From an uncultured Candidatus Saccharibacteria bacterium (GTDB taxonomy: Bacteria > Patescibacteriota > Doudnabacteria > UBA920): 64,000 nucleotides of DNA. The position numbers and the translations under genes are program-made. Of the stretch, positions 4,932 through 29,892 are shown piece after piece (within the stretch, counting starts at the first letter, position 1; every line of letters begins with the position of its first letter). Where the stretch lies: the NCBI GenBank assembly GCA_964416765.1, contig CAYQEU010000002.1, forward strand, positions 14,877 through 78,876, written 5' to 3'. The notes beneath the pieces were generated by a model. It was given only the letters and a program-made list of their open reading frames with translations. It was not told the origin of the DNA and searched no databases.

Positions 4932-7900
4932 TTAGGTTGAAGGCACAATGCTATTGTCTGTAGAGTCTGTGCTTTCAACGGCTGAAGTTTGGGCTGGGTC
5001 ACTGGAATTGGTTGGATTAGAATCGTTTTGTTCCGACCCAGACGATTCAGACGAAGCGCTGGCGCTTGAAGTATTTCCAGCAGTCGGAATGGACCGGAAT
5101 ATTTTAGGGTTCTTTACCGCAAAAGCAGTCCAGCTAAACTCTAAGTTTTCCGGGGCGGGCTTGTTTAAGACAATAGCAAACCCTTTGGCGGTTCTCTTGA
5201 TTACTGCATACTGCAGTCCTTGGTCAAACAATGATTGGACCAAAGCTTCCTGCGCACTGTCAGCATTGCTGTCATTCAATTTGCCGCCTAAGCTAAGGGT
5301 TGCGTTTACAATTGGGTTATCTAGATATTCCTTATCGAAAGTAATAGTTACCTCTTTATCTCCCTGGCTGATCTGGGCAAACCCGGCGGTGTCGGAGTTA
5401 AAGTAAGGTCGGCCAATGAACTCAACATCACTAATTAATTGGACAGAGGCCCCTAATGAGCTGATTCTATCTATCTTCAATCCTCTGCCTGAAATATTGG
5501 GAGCTACCATTTCCAAACCAGCCACCACCCGGTCGCTAGAAATTTGCATAATGGTACTTTGGGAAGAAATTTCTTCAGCCCCATTAAACCAAGCCGCCAA
5601 GTCTTCCGAATTATACTGTCTTAAAGCTTCACCGTTAACTCCAAAGTCCAACTGTGGTAACTGGGAAAGTTCTACCTCAGAACCGTCCTGAGACAAACTT
5701 AAACCATCTTGCGCGTCATCCTGCCACGAACGGTAGAAGTCAATGTCCAACTGTGAATTAGTAGCGCTGCCGCCGGTGCGTTCCTGCCACATCAGCTCCG
5801 GGGCGAGGTTGCTCCCGTAAATATTAGTACTGCTTCCCGAACCACATTCCGTGAAGTTAATACCATCAGAAGCGTTGTTGTCGATCCAGAAGCGTACGCT
5901 AGTGCTGGAACGGACTTCTACCATTAACAAGGCGTATTGAGATGTCGATACCGTTTGTCCGGTACAAACCACTGTGGTGGAGGTGCTTGCACTTCTCGTA
6001 ATACCTACCCATGTGGTTCCCAAAGTACCAGCGTTATCATTGGAAAAACCAATAAAGTTTGCGGGAGCAGTAACTTGTCCGTCGGTTTCCGTTGCCATAC
6101 CAGCGTAGATAGCACTATTCGTGTCAGCCTGGCCCGGCTTAACTTTGATTAAAATTACAGGGCGGTTCGATACGTTATACAAAAGTTTTGGGTTGTTTAT
6201 AGCTTCATCAACCATCATTAAACAACCGCTGGCCACACCGCTGGCCGCCATACGAGTAATACCATTTATCGAGTCAGCCAAACTGGAAAAAGTACAGTTA
6301 GGCGTAGTACCACCTTCATATACGCCCCAACCGCCGCCGTTTCCAAACCCAGCGTTTTGGGCGCCAGTAGTATCCGCGGTAGCGGAAGTACGTTGGCGGT
6401 TAAATTCTTCACGAATGGTACTGGTAGTGTCAATAAAGGCACCTGCAATTACCGAGGCCCCGAAGTTAGTACTTAGGTCGCGAATTTCCACCAATTTATT
6501 CGGCGTTGTGCCGCCATTCGTACATGAGGAAGAACAGTTGTCATAAAAACCCAATGCCGCCGTATCATCTGTAGCTCCGAGGCGGATTGCGGGAGTCGTA
6601 TCATCAAACTGCAAACCATAGTCATACCCGGTCCCAACACGGTAGCCAATTTCTGTACCTGCGCCGCCCGTTACGTTGGCGGCGAAGAAGGCGTTTATCG
6701 TTGAGGTAGAACCGGCTGTCGCAGTTTCAACCTTGATTCCATTTTCGGTTACTGCGGCGGCGGCGGTAGCGCCGGTCACAATACGCAATCCGCTCCATAT
6801 ACCCGCTGCTGTACCCCCAGGAGTAAGATCAACGCGCATGGCCGCAGCTTCCACGGCGGCCGAACCACCAGTATAATTGATGGACAGCGCGTTGACTCCG
6901 CCGGTAGTTACCGCTTGGCCGCTGTTGGTAATGTTTACCATGTCTTGGGTCGGAGCGCCGCTGGCGGCCACAGACAATCCAGTGACCGCGCCAGAAGTTG
7001 CGATAGAAAGCCCAGTGTCCCATCCCGTACCAATCTTAAGACCAGTACCGGTGAAGCCCGTGCCATCGGTCACATTAGCAATGTTGATTCCATTAACAGT
7101 ACAGGTTCCCGCCGGACAACTAGTAAAGGAAGGGTTAACGGAAATACCATTAACGGTTCTTGTAGCCGCGCCCCCCAACATAGTAATAGTGGGTGAAACC
7201 AACAATCCATTAGTAGTGCTGGTTACTGCATTCGAAGTGCTTTCAGAAAAAGTAATTTCGGCCAAACTTCCTGTTTCAGTTCCTGTATGGTTATAAGTTC
7301 CACTAATATCTAGTCCGCCTCCCGTAGTCATTGCGTTACCACCAACAATGCTTAAACCCGTACCCGTGGTTAAAGCAGTTCCCGATACTCTAGCAACCGT
7401 TCCAGCAGTAGTTGAGTTGGCTATCGCAGCCAGTACCCCTCCAGCCCCGCTATAGTTGGCAGAAGCGACAAATTGGGCAATCCCATTAGTCACGGCCCCT
7501 GCGGTAGCTGAGGTAACCTTAAAGACTGACCCTGAAGTAAGACCGGTCCCACTAGAAGTTACGCTTAAGGCGTCAGTAGTGGTAATTGCACCCCAATCTA
7601 AAGTCTGAGCCGTAGTCCCCATGGCGATGGAACCATTACCTGATGGGTCACCAATAACATCAAAAGCCGTCGCCCCGCCCGCTCCGCAAGATCCCCACGT
7701 CGGGGCAACCCCGGCGCTGGCGGTTTGCAGACACTGAGCTCCGGTGGAAGCGGCTGTTGCGGAAAGAGTACCATCTGTCGCGGAAACATACAGTACGGTA
7801 TTTGCTGTAGTGAACTTGCCTAACTTGATTGCAGGAGTACTGGACCCGCCGATTATGATGTTGCCGGCGTTCGTGGTGCCGATGTTGATAGCCCCGACGG

Positions 7901-9443
7901 AAGAACCGGTCCCCGCGTTGATGGATACGTCCCCTCCCGCGCCGGACACACCGGTACCGCCAAGAATGGTCAGGCCGCCTCCGGCTCCGGTTGTCGTGGC
8001 AGAGCCGCCCTTAAGATTCAACGCTCCCCCCGCTCCAGTGGAGCTAGGCGCGGAAGGCTGAATAGTCAAAGCATTGGCCGCTGCAGCCGTAACAGTGGTG
8101 ATATCGGCGGTCTGAGCTCCAGCCAAGGAAAGGACACCGCCGCTGGAGACAGTAAACTTGCTGGCGGTGTTATTCTTGAAATCGACAAAGCTGCCGCTGA
8201 ATGTTCCCGAAATATTGGCAAAGTCAAGCTTAAGGCCTGTGCCGGTGAAAGTTGAGGTATTCTGGGTCAGATTAATATAAGTGTTGGAGGTTATGGCGGA
8301 ACTGCTTGACGATATGAGCGTTTGGGACACGGCTACAGTTGCATTAATCAAATTGGTTGACGAACCAGTGGTGCCAAGTCCGACGCCAGCAAACTGCGGC
8401 GTAGCGCTCGTGTTGATGTTTTGGATCGTATTTAATGCATTAGAGGAGTTCTGTAGGTTAGTGGAGTTAAAGTTAATGAACCCGGCGTTAATAGCAGTAC
8501 CGTTCCAGGTACCAGTGGTAATTACACCTGTATTGGCAGTAACTACCAAACCGTTGTACGAAGCCGCGCCGGTTACCGCGCCGGTTAGGGCGAGGGTAGT
8601 AAAAGACCCGCCAGCAGTACAGGCAAAAGCACCGGTGGAGTTAGTGACGGTACAACCGGTTGAGGCAGAGCCCCCGCCAAGGAGGATGTCACCTGTGGAG
8701 CCGCTGGCTGTGCCAATGGTGATAGTGCCGCTGCCTTTGGCATCAATGGTCAGGTTTTCATTGGTACCGGAAGATATGGCGGACAGAGCAACTCCGCCTC
8801 CCGCGGCTGCGGAAGTAACTTTGAGTCCGGTGGCAGCAGAAACAGTTGAGGTATCCACCTGAAGGGCATAGTTTCCGGCGCTGCGGGCCACTGCCAAAGC
8901 GGTAGCCGACCCGCTAGTATTGGTTGTGTTAATGTCGCCGTCACCGGCCACACTGTTGGCTACGAGCGCGTAAGCCGCGGCTGTAATTTGCTGTCTGGGT
9001 GACATTTCACCGTCATAACCGGAACCGGAGTTAAAGTTTACGGTCAAATATACTGAACCTCCCGTAAAACTTGGCAGGGCTACATAAGTGCCCAAGGCCA
9101 CGCTAAACATCCCATTTACAAAAGCCACCTGACTGGTGCCGCCATCCCATGTTTCTGTCCATAGGAGGGTCCCGGCGCTTGCGGCATCGTACATCTTAAA
9201 CTGCATTGAATAGTTGCCGTCAGCAATGTTGGTTCCGTTGCTGCGAACGCTAATTTTACCCTGGTAATAAAGCAGTTTCGGAGTGGTGGCCTGAACGGTA
9301 TCAACGGGGACTATCAAAGAAGCAAAAACAGTTGCAAAAGCCACGACAAGCAAAATAAAAGCCGGCACGAAAACAACGCGCGGCGCATAGACACAAAATC
9401 GCATCAAAAGATGCTTTAAGATTGGCAGTAACCTGTCATCCAT
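4932..9443 (-). CDS. Giant Thr/Gly/Ser/Ala-rich beta-helical surface protein (1503 aa).
   Basis: N-terminal TM/signal. The N-terminal ~120-aa module (LWTETW...NGMFSVALG...DGEMSPR) and the C-terminal ~110-aa module are both shared with the 879-aa protein at 27253-29892. Confidence 0.8.
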   Translation of the reverse strand: MDDRLLPILKHLLMRFCVYAPRVVFVPAFILLVVAFATVFASLIVPVDTVQATTPKLLYYQGKISVRSNGTNIADGNYSMQFKMYDAASAGTLLWTETWDGGTSQVAFVNGMFSVALGTYVALPSFTGGSVYLTVNFNSGSGYDGEMSPRQQITAAAYALVANSVAGDGDINTTNTSGSATALAVARSAGNYALQVDTSTVSAATGLKVTSAAAGGGVALSAISSGTNENLTIDAKGSGTITIGTASGSTGDILLGGGSASTGCTVTNSTGAFACTAGGSFTTLALTGAVTGAASYNGLVVTANTGVITTGTWNGTAINAGFINFNSTNLQNSSNALNTIQNINTSATPQFAGVGLGTTGSSTNLINATVAVSQTLISSSSSAITSNTYINLTQNTSTFTGTGLKLDFANISGTFSGSFVDFKNNTASKFTVSSGGVLSLAGAQTADITTVTAAAANALTIQPSAPSSTGAGGALNLKGGSATTTGAGGGLTILGGTGVSGAGGDVSINAGTGSSVGAINIGTTNAGNIIIGGSSTPAIKLGKFTTANTVLYVSATDGTLSATAASTGAQCLQTASAGVAPTWGSCGAGGATAFDVIGDPSGNGSIAMGTTAQTLDWGAITTTDALSVTSSGTGLTSGSVFKVTSATAGAVTNGIAQFVASANYSGAGGVLAAIANSTTAGTVARVSGTALTTGTGLSIVGGNAMTTGGGLDISGTYNHTGTETGSLAEITFSESTSNAVTSTTNGLLVSPTITMLGGAATRTVNGISVNPSFTSCPAGTCTVNGINIANVTDGTGFTGTGLKIGTGWDTGLSIATSGAVTGLSVAASGAPTQDMVNITNSGQAVTTGGVNALSINYTGGSAAVEAAAMRVDLTPGGTAAGIWSGLRIVTGATAAAAVTENGIKVETATAGSTSTINAFFAANVTGGAGTEIGYRVGTGYDYGLQFDDTTPAIRLGATDDTAALGFYDNCSSSCTNGGTTPNKLVEIRDLSTNFGASVIAGAFIDTTSTIREEFNRQRTSATADTTGAQNAGFGNGGGWGVYEGGTTPNCTFSSLADSINGITRMAASGVASGCLMMVDEAINNPKLLYNVSNRPVILIKVKPGQADTNSAIYAGMATETDGQVTAPANFIGFSNDNAGTLGTTWVGITRSASTSTTVVCTGQTVSTSQYALLMVEVRSSTSVRFWIDNNASDGINFTECGSGSSTNIYGSNLAPELMWQERTGGSATNSQLDIDFYRSWQDDAQDGLSLSQDGSEVELSQLPQLDFGVNGEALRQYNSEDLAAWFNGAEEISSQSTIMQISSDRVVAGLEMVAPNISGRGLKIDRISSLGASVQLISDVEFIGRPYFNSDTAGFAQISQGDKEVTITFDKEYLDNPIVNATLSLGGKLNDSNADSAQEALVQSLFDQGLQYAVIKRTAKGFAIVLNKPAPENLEFSWTAFAVKNPKIFRSIPTAGNTSSASASSESSGSEQNDSNPTNSSDPAQTSAVESTDSTDNSIVPST

Positions 9444-9530
9444 TAGTATTCACAATAGGTTTTGTTTTTGTTTCGAAATGGTTCTGAACTTACGCTATTT
9501 TGGCGCAAACTCAGCAAGATTTCTAATACA

Positions 9531-9539
9531 ATTATAGCA
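9531..9539 (-). promoter_or_regulatory. Extended -10 promoter element (minus strand: AGATGTGCTATAAT).
   Basis: TRTGnTATAAT-type motif about 85 nt upstream of the 1503-aa gene start. The identical 14-mer recurs at 15937. Confidence 0.45.
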
Positions 9540-9604
9540 CATCTGAAGAAAAATTGCAAGCTAAAAAGCCGCTCTTTTTGAGAGCGGCCTCAGAAGAGGA
9601 ACTT

Positions 9605-10621
9605 TTATTTTTTTTGGGTTCGGGGTTTGCGTGTTGGCTTGTTCTGTTCCAATAGTTTTGCCATGAACCAGCGATTATATCGCCTGATCCCGTAGGTCAA
9701 CGCGAATATTACCAAGAAGAGTCCTAGAGCTATAAGCCCCACTAATTTATATGGAATAACCCAAAAACTAGTTTCAGCCCGAACGACCTGGCCCGAATCG
9801 CCATAGACCAATTCCACAGAGGCGGTATAACGGCCAAAAGCAAACTTGTCGGTCCAGGAACTTTCAAAAAGCCTTTCGCTATTCGGCAAAACATTGCTAC
9901 CATTCGGGTTCACCAGCGTGGTCCCAACCTTTTTCCCAAACATGTTCTTTATGGTAATGCTGCCCCGGGGCTTAACGTGAACGTTACCGGTGTTATGGAA
10001 GCGGGTGCGCAAGGTAACGGGTGCGCTTTCATAAACAGAGTGGGCCGGACGGAAGCTATTAATATTCCCTTCTTCGTTCGTTTTGCCCAGCTTGACCAGG
10101 ATAATAGCGGCAATCTTCTGGGATACTTCCACCGCGCTCCCCTCAACTTTAGGGGCAGTAAAGGCAAACTGGATAGAGCCATAATGGCCTCCATCCTCAG
10201 CATCGGCAGGGGCGGTAATAGTAAAGTCTATTTGGGTTTTTTCGTGAGGCTTTAAACTTAACTTAGGGTTGTTTTGAACTTTAAGCCACTTGGATAGGGC
10301 ATAAGTCTGGTCCCCTTCACCTGGTTCGTAAAAAATTTGCTGACCGTTATCACCGCCAGCAGTAAAATCCTTAATGGAAATATCAACCGGCAAAGTACGG
10401 TCCGTAGTGTTGGTCACCTCGATTGTATCCTTAAGGGTTTGTCCCCGTTCCATCTGCCGTTCCAAAATAAAGGGCGAAACGGAAAGTCCCTGGACGGGCC
10501 GGCCCGCGGCGTCGGTCTGAGCCAATGCTGAATTGGCAGACACAAACAACATACCCAATGAAGCGCAGAGAGCCAAAGCAATGGCGACTACCCGTTTCAA
10601 ATTATGGAGGTGAATTTTCAT
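9605..10621 (-). CDS. DUF916/CscA-like cell-surface protein (338 aa).
   Basis: Signal peptide 'ALALCASLGMLFVSANSALA', Ig-like beta-rich middle region, C-terminal TM plus KR-rich tail. Paralog of 32306-33283, sharing 'FAFGRYTA' and 'FWV/ILP' motifs. Confidence 0.65.
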   Translation of the reverse strand: MKIHLHNLKRVVAIALALCASLGMLFVSANSALAQTDAAGRPVQGLSVSPFILERQMERGQTLKDTIEVTNTTDRTLPVDISIKDFTAGGDNGQQIFYEPGEGDQTYALSKWLKVQNNPKLSLKPHEKTQIDFTITAPADAEDGGHYGSIQFAFTAPKVEGSAVEVSQKIAAIILVKLGKTNEEGNINSFRPAHSVYESAPVTLRTRFHNTGNVHVKPRGSITIKNMFGKKVGTTLVNPNGSNVLPNSERLFESSWTDKFAFGRYTASVELVYGDSGQVVRAETSFWVIPYKLVGLIALGLFLVIFALTYGIRRYNRWFMAKLLEQNKPTRKPRTQKK

Positions 10622-10649
10622 CTAATTAAAAAGTAACTTAATTATACCA

Positions 10650-11759
10650 TTAATATAGAGCGGAGGTGACATAACTGATGACATTTTGGTAGTCACCCGG
10701 TGGCTGCAAACCTTCCACCTCAACTTTAAATACTAAACTCGTCGATTCATTTGTAACTGGTCCGGTATTGCACGCAATTTCAGTTGGAGTTGTGGTGAGG
10801 GCGGCAAAAGTATCATTTATGGAAAACCGATTAGTGGTGCCCGTGCATAAAAGTGAGTCGGTAGTGTGATAGCCAAAACGCCCATCGGTTATGGAAAGCG
10901 GCCAGGCTGCTGGGGATGCATTGGTGGCTGAAACAGCGGGAATGGTAGTACCGTTGGTTTTGCGCAACGCACCGTCCTGGGTAATTGTAGTAGTGTAACC
11001 GGTAACAGCGTTTGTGCTGACGGTCACGGTTTGCGCCCCAATCTTAATACTGCCCACGGACAACTGGCCGAACGGTACCGTGGTGGCCGTCGTCGTCACA
11101 TTGGTCGTGGTACCGGCCACGCTGGTTCCTGAAGATACCCCGGCGACCGTCATAGTCAAACTTGGGTTGCTGGTTGTGGCGCTGGCAATATTGGAATAGC
11201 CCGACTCGTTGTTCGGCCCTAAGCGCGCTTTCACCTTTATTTTATAGGTAGTGTTGGGGGACAGGCCAATCAAGCGCTCCCCACTGCCGCTGCCCCAGCC
11301 GGCGTAGTCCTGCCAGACTTCAGTGGCGCTGGTAATGGTATCATCCGCTTTAACAAATGTGGTGGTGGTAAAATTATCCGATGAAATCGCGATGGCAAAC
11401 TGCGTATCGGAGGCGTTGCCGCCCGTGGCAATAACAAAATCCAAATTAGCGTAGAGCGTACTCCCGGTGTTGGTAAGCGTGGGCACACCGGGCACACCCG
11501 GGAAAATGGGCGGGATGGCTCCGCTCTGGACCTGGTAGTTAGTAGAGTTCGAGGTTCCCGATGCGGTACCGGTGGCATCTTGTGCCCGGTAGGTCGCGGA
11601 GTTTCGGTTACCGCCGCCAGTGGAAAACGACGGGTTTTCAATTTGGTAATTGCCGCTCTGTAGCACCAACGCAAAGACGACCTGCGGGTTTAGAATTATG
11701 GTTGCCAATATTACCAGAGCGGTATATAAGGTTGTGTACTTTTCGGTTTTGTTTCTCAT
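10650..11759 (-). CDS. WxL-like secreted surface protein (370 aa).
   Basis: Start trimmed to the ATG at 11759, giving signal peptide 'MRNKTEKYTTLYTALVILATIILNPQVVFA'. C-terminus '...PGDYQNVISYVTSALY'. Paralog of 12627-13925. Confidence 0.65.
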   Translation of the reverse strand: MRNKTEKYTTLYTALVILATIILNPQVVFALVLQSGNYQIENPSFSTGGGNRNSATYRAQDATGTASGTSNSTNYQVQSGAIPPIFPGVPGVPTLTNTGSTLYANLDFVIATGGNASDTQFAIAISSDNFTTTTFVKADDTITSATEVWQDYAGWGSGSGERLIGLSPNTTYKIKVKARLGPNNESGYSNIASATTSNPSLTMTVAGVSSGTSVAGTTTNVTTTATTVPFGQLSVGSIKIGAQTVTVSTNAVTGYTTTITQDGALRKTNGTTIPAVSATNASPAAWPLSITDGRFGYHTTDSLLCTGTTNRFSINDTFAALTTTPTEIACNTGPVTNESTSLVFKVEVEGLQPPGDYQNVISYVTSALY

Positions 11760-11801
11760 TCGCGAATAGGCAAAATGCGCATTAATACTACCATAAACTA
11801 A

Positions 11802-11810
11802 TGATATAAT
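11802..11810 (+). promoter_or_regulatory. Extended -10 promoter (TGaTATAAT) for a leaderless transcript.
   Basis: TATAAT at 11805-11810, only 7 nt before the ATG at 11818. Confidence 0.4.
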
Positions 11811-11817
11811 AAACATT

Positions 11818-12528: not shown

Positions 12529-12551
12529 TAATTTACAAATCACCCGTTTTA

Positions 12552-12560
12552 TGCTATACT
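12552..12560 (+). promoter_or_regulatory. Extended -10 promoter (TGCTATACT).
   Basis: Lies 67 nt upstream of the 12627 ATG. The same 9-mer recurs at 14002. A small hairpin TTCCC-acaa-GGGAA sits in the 5'UTR. Confidence 0.4.
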
Positions 12561-12626
12561 TAATGGGTAATAATTACTTTTCCCACAAGGGAAATCCAGA
12601 AATAAACAAAAAATTAATAAATATAG

Positions 12627-13925: not shown

Positions 13926-13950
13926 TGGCGCTCCTCCAAACCTTCGATAC

Positions 13951-13979
13951 CGCCCCACCTTCCGTGGGGCGGTTTTTTA
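13951..13979 (+). terminator. Rho-independent terminator.
   Basis: CGCCCCAC-cttcc-GTGGGGCG followed by TTTTTT. Confidence 0.8.
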
Positions 13980-20400: not shown

Positions 20401-23400
20401 CCATTTGCGATTCCTGTACCATTCAATGTTAGGGGTTCCCAAGTAGAGGCTCCGCCCACGACATAATTACTTAGATCGAGTACAGCTCCGGCAGACACAG
20501 TTACACCGCCCGCTATGGTACCAAGTGGCGTATTAGTAGCTCCGCCATTTGCTCCAACCTGAAGCACACCGGTGCTAACGGTCATGGCGCCGGTCATAGA
20601 GTTTTGCCCGGCGAGTACCAGCGTTCCAGACCCTTCTTTCACCAATGTCCCCGTACCTGACCAAACGCTGGCGGAAGATTGGGCAATATCACCCATGGTT
20701 ACGGTGGTTAACGCAAAGTTTCCCGAAATGGCACCGGCCAAAGTAAGAACACCACTGCCATAATTGGCTATGCGTGAAGCGGCACCAAGAGTAATAGCAC
20801 CGTTATACGATGTTGCGCTGCTTGAATTATTGATCAAGCTTCCTGTGCTTGCTATACCTGTTCCGTTTACTGTTAAGCTTTCAGTGGTGCTAAGGGTGTA
20901 GCCATTTAAATCGAGCATTGCGCCACTAGTAATAGTGGTAGCTCCACCTGTCGTTCCAAGTGGAGTGTTGGTACCGTCGCCTGCTGCTCCCAAGCGGAGG
21001 GTGCCCGCGCTTATTGTAGTCAGGCCGGTATATGAGCCAGAGCCGGATATTGTCCAGGTGCCAAGACCATTTTTAGTCAAGGTTCCAGTTGTGGTATTCA
21101 AATTGCTCGCCAATGTCCCATTTCCGGCGCCGCCGATTGTCAGTGCAAAAGTGTTCCCGGTTATATTTCCAGTGTTGGTAATATTAATATCCCCATAGTT
21201 CGAAATTATAGTGCTGGCAGCGCCCAAAGTAATAAGGCCGCTGTAGCTTGCAGCCACACTTGAATTATTCTGCAACGCACCCGTGGCCAAAGCGCCGCTC
21301 AAAGTGAGCGCTTCCGATGTAGCCAGCGTATATCCATTCAAATCAAGCGCGGATGAAGCACCAGAAATAGTGGTTCCGGCGGCCGTTGTTCCAAGCGGGG
21401 TGTTGGTACTGTCGCCCGTAGCCCCCAGTCTCAATGTTCCGGCACTCACCGTAGTCAAGCCTGTGTAAGTATTGTTGCCCGATAGCTCTAAAACCCCGGC
21501 GCCCGTGGATTTAGTCAGCGCGAAACTCCCACTAATGACAGCCGAAATTATCACGTCATTATCCATAAGACCATCACCAATATTAAAAGTACCACCAGCG
21601 CCCAGCGCCAGTTTACCAGTAATTAGGGTACTGACATTATTGTTGGCAATAGTGGTAAGCGCTCCCGTGGAAGTTGTTAGTGTACCAGCACCAGTTGTGA
21701 TGGCACCAGCATTTACAGTTAGCGCGCCGACTGTATCGGAATTGCCGGCTAAGTTATAGGTGCCGCCTACTATTGTTACACCTCCGCTTGAGATTGCATT
21801 ATTAACACCATAAGTCAGGGTCGCATTATTAACATAAGTGGTTCCGGTGTAGAGATTGGCCGCGCTAAGAGTAATGTTTCCCGGGCCATTCAGTGATAGT
21901 GACCCAGTTGTAGCGGTTCCAATTACAGCAGAGATAGTGGAACTGGCTGTGGCCAGGACATCCAGTTCAAAAGTTGTGATTCCCAAGGTAGTATTTGCAC
22001 CGGCAATATTATTGGCAGAGTTGATCAATACATTACCTGACAAAGAAGCGGAGGCTACAGGAAGAGTGACTCCACTCCCAGGGTTAGTGATATTAAAACC
22101 ATTTAAGATAAGTGAATTGGTATTTGTCGCTACTGCGGTGCGGTCCGCTGTTAATTTTACGTTGGCATTTGATGTAGCTAGATCGCCCGCATACTCGCCG
22201 GAAAACCCAGCGCCATTTAGCAAACGAAGCCCGTTGGTGTTGCCCACGTTGTAGGTGACCATATCACTTCCGGTACCCGTTAGGGAATTGTCCCCAAAAG
22301 CACCTTTGATAACACTAATGGTTTTTGAATTTGCTGATCCGCCGGCCCCAGTTAAGGTTGGAGTGGTGGAGAATATAAGCGAAGAAACGCCAGCCGCCGG
22401 GGTAGAGCCGAAATTAAGCCCACGGAACAGTACTGTAGCCCCGGCTGTACGGTTAAACCCTGGGTTATTGGCTACAGTCAAAGTCGTTCCGCTACCGCCG
22501 CTGCCGGCTTTTGGGTCTATGGTCACTATGTTATGTCCCGAAGCAAATGCCAATTGGCCAATTGTTTCAGTTACAGTGGTTGAATCTTTACCAATGAAGT
22601 TAAAGTTGCCGCCGTTCATGGTCAAAACCAATGCATTGCCCAAACGGTCAGCAACATTAGTGGTACTGTTATCAAGGGTCAACGTTGCGCCCAGGTTAAT
22701 GGTGATGGTAGTAGATACAGCAGTACCGTTGCCGCTTAGCACTAAAGTTCCCCCGTTAATTGCAGTCGTACTGCTAATAGTATTAGCCCCTGTTAAAGTA
22801 ACCGTGTTATTGGTGTTTTTTGCTACCGCGACCGCTCCTGCCAAAACCGCGCTAATGGTTCCGCTCTCCAGAGTATATCCAGTCGAGGTAAGAGTCCCGT
22901 TTTGAATGGTACCTCCCACAAGTGTAACCGTACCAACTGTGTCCGCCACTCCTCCCATGTCCCATGTCCCTCCTAAGATTGTCACCGGTGTGGCAGCCAA
23001 TAGGCCACTGGCGCCATAAGCAAAAGTACCGGAATAAACTCTGGTGGCTCCGGTATACGTGGCGGAACTATTGTTGGTTACTGTTCCGGCACCGTCCTTG
23101 CTGAATGTACCAGCCCCCATAGCCAATACACCGGTACTAAAGGTGGTATCGCCACCGCCTCCCACGTACAGCGAGAAAGCTCCGGTAACTCCACCGGTCA
23201 GCGTTAAAAGCCCAGATCCGGAATTTGTTATGCGCGAATCAGTTGCCTGAGTAATGGCTCCGCTATAACCGGTTGCGCTACTGGAATTGTTAATCAAAGC
23301 TCCGCCGCCATTTATTCCACGACCATTAAGCGTCAATGGTTCGGCTGCGGTCAGCGTAAATCCATTTAAATCTAATACCGCGCCGCTAAGCACAGAGGTG

Positions 23401-26400
23401 GCCCCTGACACGACGCCCAATGGCGTATTTGTACCTGAGCCTGCCGAGCCGATTATTAATGTTCCTACATTAACGCTAGTGGCACCCGTAAATGTGCTTG
23501 CGCCGGAAAGGGTCCAAGAACCGGTCCCAATCTTAGTAACCGTCCCGGTAGTGGTACCAATAATGCTGGATAGTGTACCGTTGCCTGTGCCACCAAGAGT
23601 TAAAGCCAATGCAGCCCCCGTTATGGTGCCGGAATTTGTTAAATTAATATCACCAAAATCCGCTTTAATGGTTGATGCCGAGCCAAGGGTAATTAGGCCG
23701 CTATATGTAACCGCAGAAGCGGAACTGTTCATAAGAACGCCGCTGGCAAAATCACCCAGACCATACCCGACACCGTTAATAGTGAGCGGTTCTGCCGCTG
23801 CTAGTGTATATCCATTTAAATCAAACCGAGCGCCGGCGGCAATTGTAGTAATACCGGCTACAGTACCGAGTGGGCTATTTGTGGCATCACCGGTACCTCC
23901 AAGTTTTAAGGTTCCGGCACTAATAGTGGTGGTACCCGTGTAAGAGTTACTGTTTGATGGAGTATAAGTACCGAACCCGTCTTTAGTAACCGTGGTAATA
24001 GTAGAAATAACCCCGGTTATATCAATATCACTAAACCCACCAACTGTAAGGGCAAAAGCACCGGAAATCCCCCCGCCTATGGTTATCTTGCCAAAATTAG
24101 CGCCAATACGACCAGTGTTATTTAACACTATATCGCCGTTCCAAGCCGCGGGAGTATTGGAAGTGTTGATCAGGGCGCCGCGTCCGCCAACCCCTGTTCC
24201 TCTCATTGTCAACGATTGGGCAGGATTGAGTGTAAAACCATTCATATCGAGCGTGGCACCATTGGCAATAGTGACACCACCAGCCGTTGTTCCAAGGGGA
24301 CCATATGTTCCATCACCGGCCGCGCCCAGTTGAAGAATTCCGCTGGTTACAGTTGTGGCACCTGTGTATACATTGTTCCTAGTCAGTATTACGGTGGCTT
24401 CTAGATTGGTGTTGGTGTTTATTTTTGTCACAGTTCCTGATCCGCCGATAATAGCGCTGATAGTGCCATCTCGAAGGCTATAAGATGTTCCGGTTAACAC
24501 CCCGGTCCCACCGGTAATAGTGCCGCCTTGAAGTGTTACAGCTCCAACGGCATTGTCGAAATTCCCAATATCCAAAGTTGAGCTATCTACAGTGACGGCA
24601 CTGGTGGACGGAATAGCATTGCTTACGCCAATGGTTAATTTCCCTCTATTGATTCTTGTCGCGCCAGTGTAACTCTTCGCGCTGGAAAAAGTCATGTTGC
24701 CCGCGCCGCTCTTTGTAAGACCGCCGCTAGTTGTAATATTTGCAGAAACATCAATGTCACCAACCATGCGCATGATAAACTCACTTGTCCCACCAGCTAA
24801 GGTCGTGTTGGCTCCGGCGATAACCGCGCCAGATGCGTGATTGATAATATTACCTGAAACAAAAGTTATTGTTTGCGGAGACCCCGGGTCCGTTATGCTT
24901 GCCCCGGTATCAAGGATTAAGGAATTAATTTGTGTGGTTGTTGCGGGTATAGAAGAAGAAAGCCGGACATTAGCATTGGTCACGGACATATCTGTTGTAT
25001 ATTCGTTGCTAAAGCCTGCGTGGTTCAATAAACGCAGTCCATTATTGTTGGCTCCGGATTCGTAAGTAACCATGTCGGTTCCGTCGCCAGAAGTGTCATT
25101 GTCGCCAAATACTCCTTGAAGAATACTTACGGTTGGAGTCCCCGGATTGCCATTATCACCCACCAAAGTCGGAGCCGTTTTAAACATTAGGGTCGATACG
25201 CCGGCACCAGGTGTAGAACCAAGGTTTGCCCCCCTAACCAACAACGACGCGCCTGCTGTGCGGGCAATTGACGCAAATCTTAGAACCGTAGACCCGCCTG
25301 AACCGGGATAAAAATTAATCTTGTTTTGTCCGGCACTAACAGTTAAGGCGCCTACTATGGACATAACACTGCCAGTAGAACTTCCATAAAGATTGAAGTC
25401 ACCGCCCGCCAGAGTTAGCGCCAGGGAATCTGACAAGCGATCCAGCTGTCCCGTTGTATTATCAATGTTAATGGCGCCGTCTGTGTTAATTTGCATAACC
25501 GTAGACTGGATTATGGAACCATTGCCGCTAAGAGTCAGCACCCCGTGGTTAACCGTCGTTGAACCCGTATAGGGATTAAAAGTATTTAGAGTCAAGGTTC
25601 CCGGTCCATTTTTTGTCAAAGTCCCAGCGCCAATGGCAATCGGACCGGTATCAAAGATTGTGTCTCCATCACCATCAACCGTCAAACCAAAAGCCCCTGT
25701 AACTCCTCCGTTAGAGATAGTCAGGGTAGCGCCCGCATCTGATTCAATAGTTGATGCCGCGGTCTGGGTGATTAGTCCCGTAATGGTATTGTTACCGTTT
25801 TGATTTTCAATTGCCCCGGCATTAATGAGCCCGGTGCCAGAGATAGATATGAATTCCGGGATCGACATTCCGTTGCCGTCAATAACCAAAGTAGCACCTG
25901 AGGTTACGGTTGTAACTCCGTCCACAGTACCCAGCGCTAAACTATTTTGAATACTCAAGATGCCGGCCGAAACAGAAACTGCCCCGGTGAATAAATTAGC
26001 CCGGGTCAACGTAACCGTTCCGGTGCTAGATTTAGTCAGGGTGCCGCCGGGACCGCCAAGTACAGCACTTATATTTCCGGCATAGACGGTGAAGGCGGCG
26101 CTGCTCAAAACTCCGGATGTCCCGGTAATTGTTCCGGATTGCCCGTCTAACGTGCCGAGCGTTACTGTACCAACCATGTCTGAATAGGAGGAAATATTCA
26201 AAGTCCCCGCAGTTACCGTAACAGCCCCCGAAAGGATCGCGTTATGGGTACCGTAAAGTAAGGTGCCCGCATTTACTGTTGTTAAGCCAGTGTAAGTATT
26301 GGGAAAATTATAAGTTAAGGTCCCACTTCCATTTTTTGTAACCGTCCCCGCGGCAGTACCAATAGGGGTAGTGGAATATGTGATATTACCGGCACCGTCA

Positions 26401-27236
26401 ATCAGCAAGGGAAAAGCCCCGGCCATACCGCCGGTTATGGTCAGCGTTCCGGCATCCGAATATATCTCTGCTCCGCCGGCAATCATGGTAATCAAGCCGC
26501 CGAAAGTATTGCTGTCGCTAACATTACGCAGAGCGCCTCCGCCGGCAACTCCATACCCTCTCAAAGCCAAAGGTTCATAACCAATATTTACACCTCCCTG
26601 TAGCTCCAAAGCGGAACCTCCGACTACTTCAGTACCAAGGGCGATACTGCCCAATGCTGTAGCGTTTTGGGCGTTTAGGGTACCCACATTAATTTTGGTT
26701 ACGCCGCCATAAGTGTTAGCGCCAGAAAGCACCAGTTTACCCGTTCCCTCTTTGTTAATACCGCCAACGCCGCCAATTCTGCCGCTGATAGTTAAAACTT
26801 CGGAAGTATTTGTTACAAAAATATCCCTGGTCACATCAAGGCGCATATCCAAACTAATTGTATTGCCCCCAGAGGAAGCACTGTCGGTAATTCCAGCCAG
26901 TCCCTGGCCGAGAATAAGTGGATTGCCGGAAAGATTATATCCGCTGCCGGAAAGAGTTATGGAATTGAAGATGGTATTTTCCGTAAGGTCGTTTACGCTA
27001 GAAAGATTTGAGGCCCCGGCAGGAAACACCAAATCATCGCCGGTGGCGGGGGCAGTGCCTCCCCAGTTGCTGGCATCTGACCATGAGCTGCTTGTAGTAC
27101 CGGTCCATGTTCTAACTGCAGCTTGGGCCCGGTTAACATTTCCGAAAAAAACAAAACCAGCCAGAAAGAACACCCCCACATAAAGCAGTGGTCTTATATA
27201 AGCAAAGGAAAATATTTTTTGTGCTCTGTTTCCCAT
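17415..27236 (-). CDS. Giant beta-helical adhesin-like surface protein (about 3270 aa) with at least 16 autotransporter-associated beta-strand (PATR-like) repeats.
   Basis: Signal peptide 'MGNRAQKIFSFAYIRPLLYVGVFFLAGFVFFGNVNRAQA'. Recurrent 'GxGTLxLxGxNTYTGxTTVxxGTL' units (NTYTGLTTVNAGTL, NSYTGTTTISAGTL, NTYSGITTISGGTL and others). A Gly-rich C-terminal linker precedes two ~38-aa repeats. The ORF track start at 27296 would overlap the upstream gene; the ATG at 27236 is preferred. Confidence 0.85.
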   Translation of the reverse strand: MGNRAQKIFSFAYIRPLLYVGVFFLAGFVFFGNVNRAQAAVRTWTGTTSSSWSDASNWGGTAPATGDDLVFPAGASNLSSVNDLTENTIFNSITLSGSGYNLSGNPLILGQGLAGITDSASSGGNTISLDMRLDVTRDIFVTNTSEVLTISGRIGGVGGINKEGTGKLVLSGANTYGGVTKINVGTLNAQNATALGSIALGTEVVGGSALELQGGVNIGYEPLALRGYGVAGGGALRNVSDSNTFGGLITMIAGGAEIYSDAGTLTITGGMAGAFPLLIDGAGNITYSTTPIGTAAGTVTKNGSGTLTYNFPNTYTGLTTVNAGTLLYGTHNAILSGAVTVTAGTLNISSYSDMVGTVTLGTLDGQSGTITGTSGVLSSAAFTVYAGNISAVLGGPGGTLTKSSTGTVTLTRANLFTGAVSVSAGILSIQNSLALGTVDGVTTVTSGATLVIDGNGMSIPEFISISGTGLINAGAIENQNGNNTITGLITQTAASTIESDAGATLTISNGGVTGAFGLTVDGDGDTIFDTGPIAIGAGTLTKNGPGTLTLNTFNPYTGSTTVNHGVLTLSGNGSIIQSTVMQINTDGAINIDNTTGQLDRLSDSLALTLAGGDFNLYGSSTGSVMSIVGALTVSAGQNKINFYPGSGGSTVLRFASIARTAGASLLVRGANLGSTPGAGVSTLMFKTAPTLVGDNGNPGTPTVSILQGVFGDNDTSGDGTDMVTYESGANNNGLRLLNHAGFSNEYTTDMSVTNANVRLSSSIPATTTQINSLILDTGASITDPGSPQTITFVSGNIINHASGAVIAGANTTLAGGTSEFIMRMVGDIDVSANITTSGGLTKSGAGNMTFSSAKSYTGATRINRGKLTIGVSNAIPSTSAVTVDSSTLDIGNFDNAVGAVTLQGGTITGGTGVLTGTSYSLRDGTISAIIGGSGTVTKINTNTNLEATVILTRNNVYTGATTVTSGILQLGAAGDGTYGPLGTTAGGVTIANGATLDMNGFTLNPAQSLTMRGTGVGGRGALINTSNTPAAWNGDIVLNNTGRIGANFGKITIGGGISGAFALTVGGFSDIDITGVISTITTVTKDGFGTYTPSNSNSYTGTTTISAGTLKLGGTGDATNSPLGTVAGITTIAAGARFDLNGYTLAAAEPLTINGVGYGLGDFASGVLMNSSASAVTYSGLITLGSASTIKADFGDINLTNSGTITGAALALTLGGTGNGTLSSIIGTTTGTVTKIGTGSWTLSGASTFTGATSVNVGTLIIGSAGSGTNTPLGVVSGATSVLSGAVLDLNGFTLTAAEPLTLNGRGINGGGALINNSSSATGYSGAITQATDSRITNSGSGLLTLTGGVTGAFSLYVGGGGDTTFSTGVLAMGAGTFSKDGAGTVTNNSSATYTGATRVYSGTFAYGASGLLAATPVTILGGTWDMGGVADTVGTVTLVGGTIQNGTLTSTGYTLESGTISAVLAGAVAVAKNTNNTVTLTGANTISSTTAINGGTLVLSGNGTAVSTTITINLGATLTLDNSTTNVADRLGNALVLTMNGGNFNFIGKDSTTVTETIGQLAFASGHNIVTIDPKAGSGGSGTTLTVANNPGFNRTAGATVLFRGLNFGSTPAAGVSSLIFSTTPTLTGAGGSANSKTISVIKGAFGDNSLTGTGSDMVTYNVGNTNGLRLLNGAGFSGEYAGDLATSNANVKLTADRTAVATNTNSLILNGFNITNPGSGVTLPVASASLSGNVLINSANNIAGANTTLGITTFELDVLATASSTISAVIGTATTGSLSLNGPGNITLSAANLYTGTTYVNNATLTYGVNNAISSGGVTIVGGTYNLAGNSDTVGALTVNAGAITTGAGTLTTSTGALTTIANNNVSTLITGKLALGAGGTFNIGDGLMDNDVIISAVISGSFALTKSTGAGVLELSGNNTYTGLTTVSAGTLRLGATGDSTNTPLGTTAAGTTISGASSALDLNGYTLATSEALTLSGALATGALQNNSSVAASYSGLITLGAASTIISNYGDINITNTGNITGNTFALTIGGAGNGTLASNLNTTTGTLTKNGLGTWTISGSGSYTGLTTISAGTLRLGAAGDGTNTPLGTTGGATTITSGAMLDLNGYTLSTTESLTVNGTGIASTGSLINNSSSATSYNGAITLGAASRIANYGSGVLTLAGAISGNFALTTVTMGDIAQSSASVWSGTGTLVKEGSGTLVLAGQNSMTGAMTVSTGVLQVGANGGATNTPLGTIAGGVTVSAGAVLDLSNYVVGGASTWEPLTLNGTGIANGGALISSAGSDNNFGAMTVSTNSLITNNGSGTINITGTVTIANAINLGVGGSGPTTISGSFGASATSATLTKWDSGTLILSGSSTTTGLTRINGGTLQYGTSNAINTGAVTVAGGILDINGNTDSVGAITIQNGGTITDSNGTPGVLTGTAYTFYGGGISGVLGGTAIAMTKSTGDSLTLSKTFANTGTLTINAGTVQYLASNIINDSAAVTVAGGTLDIQSYTDTLGTLTLTSGFIIGSGTFTGSSYAVASGTITANLAGAVNLTKTTTGTVTLAGTNTYSGITTISGGTLSVSTIGNGGVAGNLGQASNAAGNIVFNTAVGTLQYTGGSASTDRSYTTTNAIAATFDITNPGTVLTWGGAGTVTTAPITKSGPGTLVFTSAQGHTGLTTVSGGTLQYGVANMLSTGAVTVVNGVLDLNNISDSVGIITLQTDGQIIDSGGTTAVLTTTGTAALQSGLVSARLGGSVAAGISKTTGGRVTLSADNTFTSTSIALSAGYLNLQNSNALGASGTTLTTTITSGAVMELQGNITLPSTKLITANGTGVNNVGAIRNISDTNAIQATLTLGSSGVRVNSDSGSLTIPSVSGNARSLIVGGAGDTTITGAIATTSGTLTKDGAGTLTLSGANTFTGSLTLSGGTIVANATAALGSGGVNNTLIFNGGTLQASGNITSPVNRAVTLTQTAIIDTNGNDVSFAGTVGSAAGLTKLGSGTLTLTGVTTLGGELTISNGTFVAPANLTVTGNLSNSGTFTHNNGSVTIIPNSTTGVASVGGSSDTTFYDFADTTDNSILTFKAGKTYTFANSITVTGTSGRPIALSSDTPGQQWLMDLSGTASFSYLSVQDSGCSGVFTITNDGTLVNIGNNGSCWGFVSYGGGGGPTGGGSGSSGNSSGGGSSDGNGGICGNSAIAIAILTGDHVTSVTMVCGGSSYGIAPVVNFIDGGGTGAAAVAVLTGDVITAINVTNGGMNYTSAPTVTFGGVSGGGGGSGGGGSASP

Positions 27237-27252
27237 TGGGTTGATGTGCAAT

Positions 27253-29892
27253 TTAAGGGGTAGGGCCTGCACCTTCGGTTGCGGCAGATAAATCATCTTC
27301 CTGAGCGGTTGTGTTGTCTTCCGGAACGGTCGTGCTATCTCCGGCTACAGTGCCGGTATCTTCAGTAGGCGGCTCCTGGGCTGCTTGGGGTAATGAGTAA
27401 GTTACAATCGTGTAATTACCCGATGATTGGGTTATTACGGAAAGCTGATTATGGCTAAAAGTGTTGTAGCCCTCTTCTTTTGCTATTACCAAATAGTGGA
27501 CAATTGCCGGATTAGGCGTACCGTCTACGCCAAATGACTTGATAATAAACCCGGCGTAATTGCCGTTCTGGTCTTTTTTCCATGAGGCAATCTGGACGAA
27601 TACTGGACCATCACCCTCCGGAGTAAGCTGAACGACAGGTTTTCCGCTGCTAAGGTTGTGGCTGAATGTAATTTCAGCAGTCCCATCCGTTTCCGTGGCG
27701 ATTGAGCCGGCGAAGGTATCGTCTTGCATACTAATTAGGTTTTTGACGGCAACGACGCCCTGGGCATCAACGCTAAACAATTTACTATTGTCGGCGCTGA
27801 CCACGAACAACGTTTCAGAGGGGCTGTTGGGGCTGACATTGATTTCAGTAGCGCCATTATTGCGGACCAGCATGCGGCTAGTTTGCTGGTTTTGGACATT
27901 CAGAATATCCCCGCTTCCGTTTTGGTTTATCAAATAGGCCGCGGCATTGGTGGTGCTGGCAATCAGCTGAGTAGCCATTGTGCCGCGCTGTACATTTACG
28001 GAATTGTTAAACAGGTCAACCGTCTGGGTGGGATCATAATATATCGGGTTAACAAACACCAAAACCGTATTTCCGCTTAAACCGTTAAAGGAAGCTAAGG
28101 CTTGGCCGATCACCTTGCCGGGAGCTGTAGCTTTCATGGCATACCCGGGAATGGTAGCCGAACTGGTTAAGTAATCTCCGGGCTGGATAGTGCCATTTTC
28201 GATGGTTGCTTTAACCCGGACACGGCCAACCAATGCTACCGGTTGAGGATTGTCAGTAGGGTTAATGTTGTGGCCAATGCTGTTAAAGTCCCCGGCGTCT
28301 TCAATATTGGAAACCACTCCCACGAGATTGCTTTGGTAAGCGGAAGTTGTCTTAACCACTTTTACCAACCGGTCTCCCTGGGTGGTGGTTACATAGTTTG
28401 TTCCTGAGCTCACTACGTCAGCGGTTTGTATGTTGGGTTCAGCCGGATAAAATTCCATGTAGTCAGCGCCCGGTCCCGGGTTACAATCTTTAATAGCATC
28501 TAATCCCGTACCGTTTGTGTCATGGCACAAGGTAAAGTTGCCCGTGGACGAAGCAAGGTTGACGCTGGTGTTTCCGCTGTTGTCCACTTTAAACTTCGTG
28601 GTTCCTCCCGACTTGGCATTGATGAAGTTACCCGAGGCAAAAGTGCCGGAGTTGTTAGCAACATCAAACAATAATAAATTGCCGGTGTAGGCGCTAGATT
28701 CCTGGTAAATATCCACCATATCCGCGCTGGTCGCGTCATTGGTATAAGCACGGATGGCATTGCCGCGGGTTTTCGTGGTAGAATTCGCGCCGTTGTCCAA
28801 GTCCGCATATATGGCAGCTGGCTGAACTATGGAAGCTGCCTGGGACGTAGTGGTAGCCTGAAGGCCGAAAGTATAACCATAGCTGGCAATGCCAGTATTA
28901 ACCCCGTTTACATTGGAGCCGCTGTAGGCCTGGACTTCCAATCCCCGGACCACCTGCCCGGTGCCAAGCGAAGAATTATCAATCATTCTAATAAACTGGC
29001 CGTCGTAAGTTCCCGCCTGGCTGCCGCTGCTGGGAATTGTTGAAATGAACCGATTACCAAACTCAAAACCGGAAGCGGTCGCATTGCTCAGCGTATAATC
29101 TCCGAATATGCCTGCAATCGCGCTGCTGCCGCTGCTTGTAATGCTGTTAGTCAAAGTCAGGAGACCCTGTGACTGGATGCCGCCCGAACCCACACTAAGG
29201 TAAGTGCCCACGTTCAAGGCGCCGCCCGTTGTCACATCGCCGCCGGAGAAGTTAAAACCGGCGGAACTTCCAGTAGCCGTAAAGGTGGTTAGTCCGGCTG
29301 ATGAAACACCTAAAGTAAGCAGGTTGGAACCGTCGTAAGCAAGTGTAGCCTGGGGTACTGTTGTGTTGGTAAGGTAAATTATGCCATTGCCCTGGAGACT
29401 GTTGGCTATCATGGCCGCCGGAACCGCGCCCAGTGTTCTGCGAGGGGACATTTCCCCATCCCAGGACGGGGAACCGGTGCCGCCAATGTTGACTCCCAAA
29501 TAAAGCGTCTGGTTAAAGTCCACGCCGCTTAATGAAGTGACTTCGCCCAGCATAACGCTGAATACCCCATTTGTTATCTGCACCTTGTTAGCACCCGTGC
29601 GGGTTTCTGTCCAAAGCGCGGCTCCCCCGGTGGATACGTTGTACAATTTGAATTCTATGTTGTACTGTCCATCAGCAACCGCAACGTTGCTTAGGTTAGT
29701 AAGTTTGGCCTGGTAACTAATTTGGTTATTAATCCCTGTGGCCTGTGCCGTGCTTCCAGGCAAGGAAAGACCGAGAAGAATGAACAGTGCCACCGCGCAA
29801 AGCATGCCCATGGCAAAAGTAGATATGACAAGGGGGTGTTGACGGGTGGGCATGGCAGTAACCAGGCGCCAATTAAAAGCTGGGCGGTTCAT
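27253..29892 (-). CDS. Surface protein (879 aa), paralogous at both termini to the 1503-aa protein.
   Basis: N-terminal TM. Module 'LWTETRTG...NGVFSVMLG...DGEMSPR'. Conserved block 'LVGVVS...PVALVGRVRVKATIENGTIQPGDYLTSSATIPGYAMKA'. Shared C-terminal module. Confidence 0.8.
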   Translation of the reverse strand: MNRPAFNWRLVTAMPTRQHPLVISTFAMGMLCAVALFILLGLSLPGSTAQATGINNQISYQAKLTNLSNVAVADGQYNIEFKLYNVSTGGAALWTETRTGANKVQITNGVFSVMLGEVTSLSGVDFNQTLYLGVNIGGTGSPSWDGEMSPRRTLGAVPAAMIANSLQGNGIIYLTNTTVPQATLAYDGSNLLTLGVSSAGLTTFTATGSSAGFNFSGGDVTTGGALNVGTYLSVGSGGIQSQGLLTLTNSITSSGSSAIAGIFGDYTLSNATASGFEFGNRFISTIPSSGSQAGTYDGQFIRMIDNSSLGTGQVVRGLEVQAYSGSNVNGVNTGIASYGYTFGLQATTTSQAASIVQPAAIYADLDNGANSTTKTRGNAIRAYTNDATSADMVDIYQESSAYTGNLLLFDVANNSGTFASGNFINAKSGGTTKFKVDNSGNTSVNLASSTGNFTLCHDTNGTGLDAIKDCNPGPGADYMEFYPAEPNIQTADVVSSGTNYVTTTQGDRLVKVVKTTSAYQSNLVGVVSNIEDAGDFNSIGHNINPTDNPQPVALVGRVRVKATIENGTIQPGDYLTSSATIPGYAMKATAPGKVIGQALASFNGLSGNTVLVFVNPIYYDPTQTVDLFNNSVNVQRGTMATQLIASTTNAAAYLINQNGSGDILNVQNQQTSRMLVRNNGATEINVSPNSPSETLFVVSADNSKLFSVDAQGVVAVKNLISMQDDTFAGSIATETDGTAEITFSHNLSSGKPVVQLTPEGDGPVFVQIASWKKDQNGNYAGFIIKSFGVDGTPNPAIVHYLVIAKEEGYNTFSHNQLSVITQSSGNYTIVTYSLPQAAQEPPTEDTGTVAGDSTTVPEDNTTAQEDDLSAATEGAGPTP

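Follow-up and report, generated by a model that had tools for sequence, protein, structure and literature searches.

We analyzed a 64,000-nt stretch of contig CAYQEU010000002.1 (positions 14,877 to 78,876 of the forward strand; assembly GCA_964416765.1), below called the window, from an uncultured bacterium deposited as Candidatus Saccharibacteria and placed by GTDB in the Doudnabacteria (Patescibacteriota). The window is chromosomal, with a 16S rRNA, four tRNAs and genes for NusA, RNase Y, SMC, FtsH and PilM, and surface-protein genes are numerous in it besides the two considered here, gene A and gene B (Table 1). Their open reading frames (ORFs) and translations have the same coordinates and lengths as in an earlier reading made from the sequence alone (the sequence-only reading), which took the products for surface proteins with homologous N- and C-terminal modules around unrelated centers and proposed a cassette-type family with a swappable adhesive core. 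As judged from sequence comparisons, A and B appear to belong to a very large family of modular surface fibers that has no name so far and whose members have a conserved N-terminal domain (the N module) in common.

Table 1. Genes and features in and around the A and B loci (window coordinates; "of 80 loci" refers to the survey of N-module loci described in the text)
Feature	Position (nt)	Strand	Length or residues	Remarks
Gene A	4932-9443	(-)	1503 aa	Signal peptide, N module, long T/G/A/S-rich center, Cys-containing globular region, AC domain, Ser-rich tail
A signal peptide	9288-9443	(-)	aa 1-52	Ends VQA/T
A N module	8940-9281	(-)	aa 55-168	Divergent copy
A central segment	8124-8357	(-)	aa 363-440	Common to B-type proteins
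A globular region	5604-6563	(-)	aa 961-1280	Fold unassigned; common to ~8 relatives
A C-terminal domain (AC)	5079-5471	(-)	aa 1325-1455	H-type-lectin-like by weak sequence matches
Gene B	27253-29892	(-)	879 aa	Signal peptide, N module, shaft, G2-type chaperone block, linker, BC domain, acidic/Thr tail
B signal peptide	29740-29892	(-)	aa 1-51	Ends AQA/T; sole hydrophobic segment of B
B N module	29389-29730	(-)	aa 55-168	Seven-strand beta-sandwich (AlphaFold2)
B central segment	28561-28797	(-)	aa 366-444	Common to A (Smith-Waterman)
Cys pair of B	28486-28530		aa 455-469	C456 and C470, LCH.TNG...DC
Predicted autocleavage junction of B	28462-28467	(-)	Ala476/Asp477	Motif ADYMEFY
B LVGVVS block	27973-28464	(-)	aa 477-640	Peptidase_G2 / phi29 gp12-type intramolecular chaperone-like domain
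B linker	27724-27972	(-)	aa 641-723	N/Q-rich; AlphaFold2 pLDDT 44-83, confidence partly low
B C-terminal domain (BC)	27463-27723	(-)	aa 724-810	Six-strand beta domain; AlphaFold2 pLDDT >90
W1	33288-33938	(-)	216 aa	Signal peptide and one domain; homologues in 48 of 80 loci
DUF916/WxLIP-like protein, B operon	32306-33283	(-)	325 aa	Signal peptide and C-terminal membrane anchor; 50 of 80 loci
W2	31547-32302	(-)	251 aa	Signal peptide, SxxY repeats and a single domain; 57 of 80 loci
fn3 protein	30264-31544	(-)	426 aa	Signal peptide and C-terminal membrane anchor; PF00041, E 4.6e-6; 56 of 80 loci
Small ORF	29889-30134	(-)	81 aa	Overlaps B start by 4 nt; also called on the contig of the B orthologue
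PATR-repeat protein	17415-27296	(-)	3293 aa	Directly downstream of B; PF12951 in 16 stretches, E 2e-58
DUF916/WxLIP-like protein upstream of A	9605-10621	(-)	338 aa	PF06030, E 6.6e-12; signal peptide and C-terminal membrane anchor
445-aa ORF	10650-11987	(-)	445 aa	Upstream of the DUF916 gene of A; SxxY repeat motif as in W2
PilM and two possible pilus-assembly ORFs	414-2645	(-)		PilM: PF11104, E 3e-44; ~2.3 kb from A
tRNA-Ile(GAT)/tRNA-Ala(TGC) pair	2763-3171	(+)
Two Ig-like surface protein genes	3206-4911
CAP/SCP-domain protein	14539-15810	(-)	423 aa
16S rRNA	35550-37013	(-)
Protein with DUF11 repeat	47669-51082	(-)	1137 aa

Both proteins look exported, as had been supposed. In each, a single hydrophobic segment lies at the N-terminus, followed by VQA in A and AQA in B, and neither protein contains a further transmembrane segment or an LPXTG motif. 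The xA motif stands just ahead of the first strand in most of 36 aligned members of the N-module family. Scans of Pfam, NCBIfam and PHROGs with whole A and B gave no match except a weak one to phrog_8925 in the linker of B (E 0.023), and a PDB sequence search returned nothing meaningful for B and nothing for the C-terminal half of A. No database record was found for the exact protein B. An orthologue that is 93% identical (P0001) is encoded on Logan contig L082, with the same gene order.

The N modules of A and B are solidly homologous at the sequence level, in agreement with the sequence-only reading. BLASTP aligned residues 6-184 of A with 14-185 of B at 37% identity over 184 aa (E 3e-22), and the Smith-Waterman score was 224, compared with 34+/-6 for shuffled sequences (z=31; 0 of 500). 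With either N module as query, tblastn against the window found the other copy as its sole match (E 1e-22). Of the columns in the alignment of 36 members, 13 are invariant and another 15 nearly so, and the conservation is position-specific rather than a reflection of Thr/Gly bias. The A copy is the divergent one, 39% identical to that of B, whereas B is 52-68% identical to other family members. No match to the N module was found in Pfam, NCBIfam or the PDB sequences. The AlphaFold2 model has a predicted local distance difference test (pLDDT) score of 84, with a core above 90.

A hidden Markov model (HMM) of the N module, scanned against 1.84 billion cluster representatives, matched 43,531 of them at E<=1e-3, 19,178 at E<=1e-10 and 1,113 at E<=1e-30. 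Among the best 150 matches the module lies at residues ~30-165 of proteins that range from 172 to 7453 aa. It sits nearly always directly after the signal peptide and, once that is removed, would form the mature N-terminus. Across distant lineages the N module retains 50-75% identity, and it is the rest of the protein that varies: fusions occur with S74, LVIVD, LamG, beta-helix, FG-GAP, Fib_succ and G2 regions. Counts of module combinations, with "blk" for the B-type block and AC and BC for the C-terminal domains of A and B, gave 45 N-blk, 9 N-blk-AC, 4 N-blk-BC, 6 N-AC, 11 blk-AC and 8 blk-BC. The view of the N-terminal module as a constant element with very different downstream parts therefore holds for thousands of proteins. 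A few N modules were found at residues 400-720 of their proteins, possibly as fusions with a 686-aa ORF family termed C2.

A genome scan yielded 339 confirmed N-module copies in species genomes, and the best-matching 80 of these loci were surveyed. Nearly all of the 80 are in metagenome-assembled genomes named as Patescibacteria lineages, the same group from which almost all B relatives come and in which these relatives place the source bacterium; several are labeled only "bacterium" and one is labeled Burkholderiales. The latter, locus L023, has its N module on a 268-kb contig (JAMPXW010000002.1), and its label is probably a binning or labeling error, or else marks a rare occurrence outside the candidate phyla radiation (CPR).

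The sequence-only reading had likened the LVGVVS block of B to tail-fiber or intramolecular-chaperone modules and suggested a comparison with the peptidase S74 fold. The general likeness stands, with a different chaperone type: as judged by profile comparisons, the block is probably related to the autocleaving intramolecular chaperone of phi29 gp12 and the Peptidase_G2 family. A profile of 29 homologues of B 440-640, compared with the whole PDB, gave only two matches, both to C-terminal chaperone domains of tailspikes: 28nb (D4 of the Dpo31 tailspike, E 0.0032) and 3gqh (phi29 gp12, E 0.0041). Each match comprises two collinear stretches, and that to 3gqh begins at residue 1 of the gp12 C-terminal fragment (DFAEYFES). 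Seven of the 29 members match PF11962 (Peptidase_G2; best E 1.2e-10), and relative P0020 scores 37 bits against a curated cut-off of 25 in a region that overlaps the one aligned with B. Using hhalign, the block aligned with full-length gp12 at E 2.1e-4, placing A476/D477-Y-M-E480 of B on S691/D692-F-A-E695 of gp12, residues of a motif that is reportedly catalytic in gp12. The Asp and Glu of this junction motif are at least 90% conserved among the 29 relatives, and ADYMEFY occurs once in B and is absent from A. The AlphaFold2 model of the block is all-beta (pLDDT >90), consistent with the description of the phi29 chaperone body as beta-stranded (PMC4690869). Foldseek matches for the model of the C-terminal half of B are led by phage capsid decoration proteins and include the ends of tailspikes and pyocin fibers.

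The S74 type was rejected for the block. PF13884 was not matched by A or B at E<=0.1 or by the 29 block relatives at E<=1, and the Ser-Lys-type motif S[DE]x[RK]xK (SDxRxK type) is absent from A and B. No G2 block is present in A, and a candidate vestigial cleavage motif just before its AC domain (SEDLAAWF, aa 1280-1287) was dismissed at 0.1 bit against the block HMM. Just before the predicted junction of B, and in many of its relatives, is a pair of cysteines (C456 and C470) that may form a disulfide loop at what would be the mature C-terminal tip.

The centers of A and B are mostly different, as had been described, but they are not wholly unrelated. Residues 363-440 of A and 366-444 of B, a segment of ~78 aa, aligned with a Smith-Waterman score of 108 versus 45+/-7.5 for shuffles (z=8.4; 0 of 1000), and the A segment also matches more than 25 B-type relatives. 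The T/G/A/S-rich center of A has no significant internal repeats, and its globular region had no match among PDB sequences.

The last ~110 residues, which the sequence-only reading had called clearly homologous, gave no such signal. The best local alignment of the two C-termini is the one that had been reported, and its score of 24 falls below the 27-30 of shuffled sequences (z ~ -1); tblastn found no match between them. To compare families, the AC domain (A 1325-1455) was grown to ~39 sequences and the BC region (B 705-835) to 14, of which a further database search had added three. Profiles of the enlarged families compared with three hhalign settings gave E 0.08-0.15 at a probability below 1%, and the HMM of the AC family reached B only at E=2, in the expected register. 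C-terminal homology of A and B was accordingly rejected, no test being significant. Rather than being one constant module, AC and BC are distinct sequence families that replace each other at one position; the shaft and block of B are followed by AC in some relatives (P0009, P0010, P0017, P0018, P0019, P0025 and P0029) and by BC in others.

Matches of both ends to lectins are weak. Ten of 23 AC family members match the H-type lectin family PF09458 (best E 2.3e-4), while A itself reaches E 0.07 and 13.7 bits, against a cut-off of 24, over profile positions 2-66 of 67; no match to AC was found among PDB sequences, nor to 13 BC members in Pfam. For the C-terminal half of B, Foldseek weakly matched Helix agglutinins, SLL-2 and the AP22 gp53 fiber tip (4mtm), with probabilities of 0.91-0.97 but E 0.17-0.21 and target template-modeling (TM) scores of 0.42-0.46 for 3wmp, 4q56 and 2ce6. 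At most, the A and B ends may have the fold of a small lectin-like sandwich in common.

A conserved operon of surface proteins, W1 > DUF916 > W2 > fn3 > N, ends with B, and its gene order is also the commonest among the 80 loci. Conservation across these Patescibacteria loci extends over the same-strand region that precedes the N module, and the order recurs in most of them. The sequence-only reading had overlooked this operon, which points to the likeliest role of the N module. W1 and W2 are small, secreted and paralogous to each other (E 3.5e-12). The 325-aa DUF916/WxLIP-like protein matches PF06030 (E 2.3e-4) and has a hydrophobic C-terminus with a basic tail. The 81-aa ORF next to B is conserved in 29 of the 80 loci, in 20 of these within 600 nt upstream of the N module. 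It shares a motif (...Y..R.G.L.......W..T.EW...YL) with the N-terminus of the C2 family (L068, 1165-3225), which was seen in 54 of the 80 loci and resembles a small domain of the helix-turn-helix type.

At the A locus the operon takes a compact form, 445-aa ORF > DUF916 > A. The 445-aa ORF resembles the N-terminus of W2 (E 2.7e-7) and matches 15 of the 80 loci, and the two DUF916-like proteins are 31% identical (E 1e-37). The divergent N module of A is thus paired with a divergent DUF916 gene, and A and B may represent two orthogonal docking pairs. A WxL identity was considered for W1 and W2 and rejected: none of 17 W1/W2 family members at E<=1, nor A or B, matched the Pfam WxL family (PF13731), and W1 and W2 had no PDB match. 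Their W-T-V / GxYxATITATA pattern is only reminiscent of a WxL domain, and the analogy with the Csc/WxL gene clusters of Firmicutes relies on DUF916 and on the layout of the cluster. We found no paper linking DUF916 or WxL proteins with CPR bacteria.

Downstream, the annotated start of the PATR-repeat protein overlaps B by 44 nt; Met21, 16 nt past the B stop codon, is likely the true start. The protein has a Gly-rich end. A PATR-protein neighbor also follows the B orthologue on L082, and in an Uhrbacteria genome (L083) a B-like gene is followed by one for a 2376-aa protein.

Taking these observations together, we lean toward the reading that A and B are Sec-exported fiber- or spike-like surface proteins whose N module docks on a Csc/WxL-like wall platform and whose distal modules have been shuffled. 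After removal of the signal peptide, the ~115-aa beta-sandwich of the N module would be the mature N-terminus and would dock the fiber on a wall-bound platform formed by the operon partners (W1, W2, the DUF916/WxLIP protein and the fn3 protein). Such docking would parallel that of the "large WxL" adhesins of Firmicutes by their WxL domain in Csc/WxL clusters, and can also be likened to the attachment of phage fibers to the virion by a conserved N-terminus. Everything distal to the N module would be exchangeable. In B, the G2-type block after the shaft would nucleate trimer folding and then cut at Ala476/Asp477. In A, which lacks a G2 chaperone, the H-type-lectin-like end probably binds a glycan. 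The fibers would mediate attachment to a host.

Several points weigh against this reading. The homologies, the arrangement of modules, the conservation of the operon and the export signals are shown, whereas docking, trimerization, cleavage, ligand binding and the role in host attachment are steps that we infer. The operon survey drew on the 80 best-matching of 339 loci, and the failure of W1 and W2 to match WxL or any PDB entry also counts against a Csc/WxL-like platform. Compared with the PDB and viral models, the N-module model found only generic immunoglobulin- or carbohydrate-binding-module-like folds (TM ~0.4-0.5, E > 1e-3), and because of this the fold is uninformative about its role. 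For the block, B alone did not match PF11962 at E<=0.1, nor did B within the block alignment at E<=1; the hhalign probability for gp12 was only 46%; and with the monomer model 3gqh and 3suc were not among the top 50 Foldseek matches. Finally, the gp12 chaperone is the extreme C-terminus of its protein, whereas ~240 residues (linker, BC and tail) follow the block in B, so that cleavage would discard a conserved domain.

The alternative of the sequence-only reading, a cassette family with constant N and C ends for export or anchoring, in which swapping of the adhesive core inside one genome would produce antigenic or host-range variation, seems to us quite improbable. The constancy of the N module and the high variability of the parts downstream across the family would fit it. 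So would the positions of contig ends: 52 of the 80 loci have one less than 5 kb from the N module on the downstream side (37 within 1.5 kb), and 12 of 80 on the upstream side. The pattern indicates heterogeneity among strains, or repeats, within the variable part and suggests that fiber genes are systematically under-assembled. However, the C-terminal ends are not demonstrably homologous, no direct or inverted DNA repeats of at least 40 nt involve A or B, no silent cassettes or template/variable repeat pairs like those of diversity-generating retroelements were found around them, and no reverse transcriptase was present among 26 ORFs scanned. The N modules, ~40% identical as proteins, are too diverged for homologous recombination. 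In addition, between B and its orthologue P0001 the core differs least, with 93-100% identity in most segments, compared with 84% in the C-terminal tail and 38% in the first 52 residues, the signal peptide region, where a local replacement or an indel-shifted start may be responsible. The mosaicism is evolutionary domain shuffling. It is still harder to credit that the segments common to A and B are merely compositional (Thr/Gly/Ser) similarity, an explanation that is almost certainly wrong as a whole. It draws on the T/G/S/A-rich centers of both proteins and still stands at the C-termini, where the resemblance is below that of shuffled sequences, but it is refuted for the N module by the z score and the invariant columns, and the central segment exceeds composition-preserving shuffles.

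A and B could also act away from the cell surface, as secreted depolymerases or toxins against host cells, with the N module as a ligand-binding or secretion domain and the operon neighbors independent of them. The conserved AxA site together with the lack of an LPXTG motif or second transmembrane segment is compatible with release, phage tailspikes equipped with chaperones of this kind often act as glycan depolymerases (PMC4690869), and sandwiches of the carbohydrate-binding type, for instance the isoamylase N-domain (E 7e-3), are among the folds that the N module matches. We regard release as unlikely in view of the tight, order-conserved linkage to membrane- and wall-anchored partners in most loci and of the identity of the N module across distant lineages, which is easier to explain by a self-directed interaction than by a ligand that varies; moreover, the Pfam and NCBIfam scans revealed no domain of an enzyme in either protein. 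That the genes encode tail fibers of a prophage or of phage origin, and thus virion components, is very improbable, even though B has a chaperone block of the G2 type, S74 "tail fiber" domains occur in relatives, and the C-terminal half of B resembles phage tailspikes, pyocin fibers and capsid decoration proteins in fold. Both proteins have signal peptides, the surroundings are housekeeping and surface genes with no phage genes seen, and the partner genes encode wall- and membrane-anchored proteins. The N module was found neither in GenBank phages nor in 2.9 million IMG/VR contigs, and the block had no match in GenBank phages or, in a search limited to close relatives, in IMG/VR. A virion-protein origin was rejected on these grounds.

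Apart from type IV pili and a small number of essential adhesin-like proteins, little is known of how CPR/Patescibacteria recognize and attach to their hosts (PMC10633639, PMC12206443). The N module and its wall- and membrane-anchored gene set provide a concrete candidate for a modular attachment apparatus. The observations also appear to extend phage-type intramolecular chaperones (G2, S74) to cellular Sec-exported proteins on a large scale. The N module could also serve as a marker for variable surface fibers in fragmented CPR assemblies. The wider proposal, that the N module together with four to five genes preceding it constitutes an undescribed, Patescibacteria-wide "platform-and-fiber" system, a distant counterpart of Csc/WxL and a main determinant of which host is attached, is possible but somewhat doubtful. 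Under it, a universal docking domain would let ultra-small episymbionts mount host-recognition fibers and exchange them over evolution, and such fibers would fold with phage-type self-cleaving chaperones (G2 or S74).

Elsewhere in the window, the 16S rRNA gene has no adjoining 23S gene. A tRNA-Ile/tRNA-Ala pair is typical of rRNA spacers; since the pair here lies 32 kb from the 16S gene on the opposite strand, the rRNA genes appear to be unlinked. This pair and two immunoglobulin (Ig)-like surface protein genes separate A from the PilM region. The CAP/SCP-domain protein and the protein with the DUF11 repeat are further products encoded in the window.

The known systems that A and B resemble also differ from them. 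With the H-type lectins (PF09458) and the AP22 gp53 fiber tip (4mtm), the likeness consists of recurrent weak PF09458 matches in the AC family of A and weak fold matches of the C-terminal model of B to Helix agglutinins, SLL-2 and 4mtm; all scores are below the family thresholds, and AC and BC do not match each other. Peptidase_S74 proteins (endosialidases, T5 pb1 and "tail fiber domain-containing proteins") share the logic of a C-terminal chaperone for trimeric fibers (PMC4690869), and many other N-module proteins carry PF13884. In contrast, A, B and the 29 block relatives lack this domain and A and B its Ser-Lys-type motif, and the predicted fold of the B block is all-beta, not helical.

Closer to B are phi29 gp12 (PF11962; 3gqh, 3suc) and Dpo31 D4 (28nb). 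The block matches them in two collinear stretches, its Asp-x-x-Glu sits at the cleavage junction of gp12, and an all-beta body, predicted in the case of B, follows a fiber or spike shaft. B differs in being a signal-peptide-bearing cellular protein instead of a virion part, in having Ala where gp12 has Ser before the Asp, in scoring below the Pfam threshold and in the residues, including a conserved domain, that come after its block.

For the operon as a whole, the nearest comparison is with the Csc/WxL clusters of Lactobacillales, Listeria and Enterococcus, which comprise small WxL, large WxL, DUF916/DUF3324 and LPXTG proteins (PMC1534035, PMC9772566). Firmicutes account for over 91% of known WxL proteins (PMC9772566), and the taxon here is Patescibacteria. 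No Pfam WxL domain was detected in W1 or W2, and an LPXTG protein is lacking. The operon contains an anchored fn3 protein and an 81-aa ORF in addition, and the large protein has its conserved domain at the N-terminus instead of the C-terminus. The two have in common an operon made up only of exported surface proteins, with a C-terminally anchored DUF916/WxLIP_PGBD protein, one or two small secreted proteins with a single domain, and a large multidomain protein whose terminal domain is conserved and family-specific (PMC1534035, PMC9772566).

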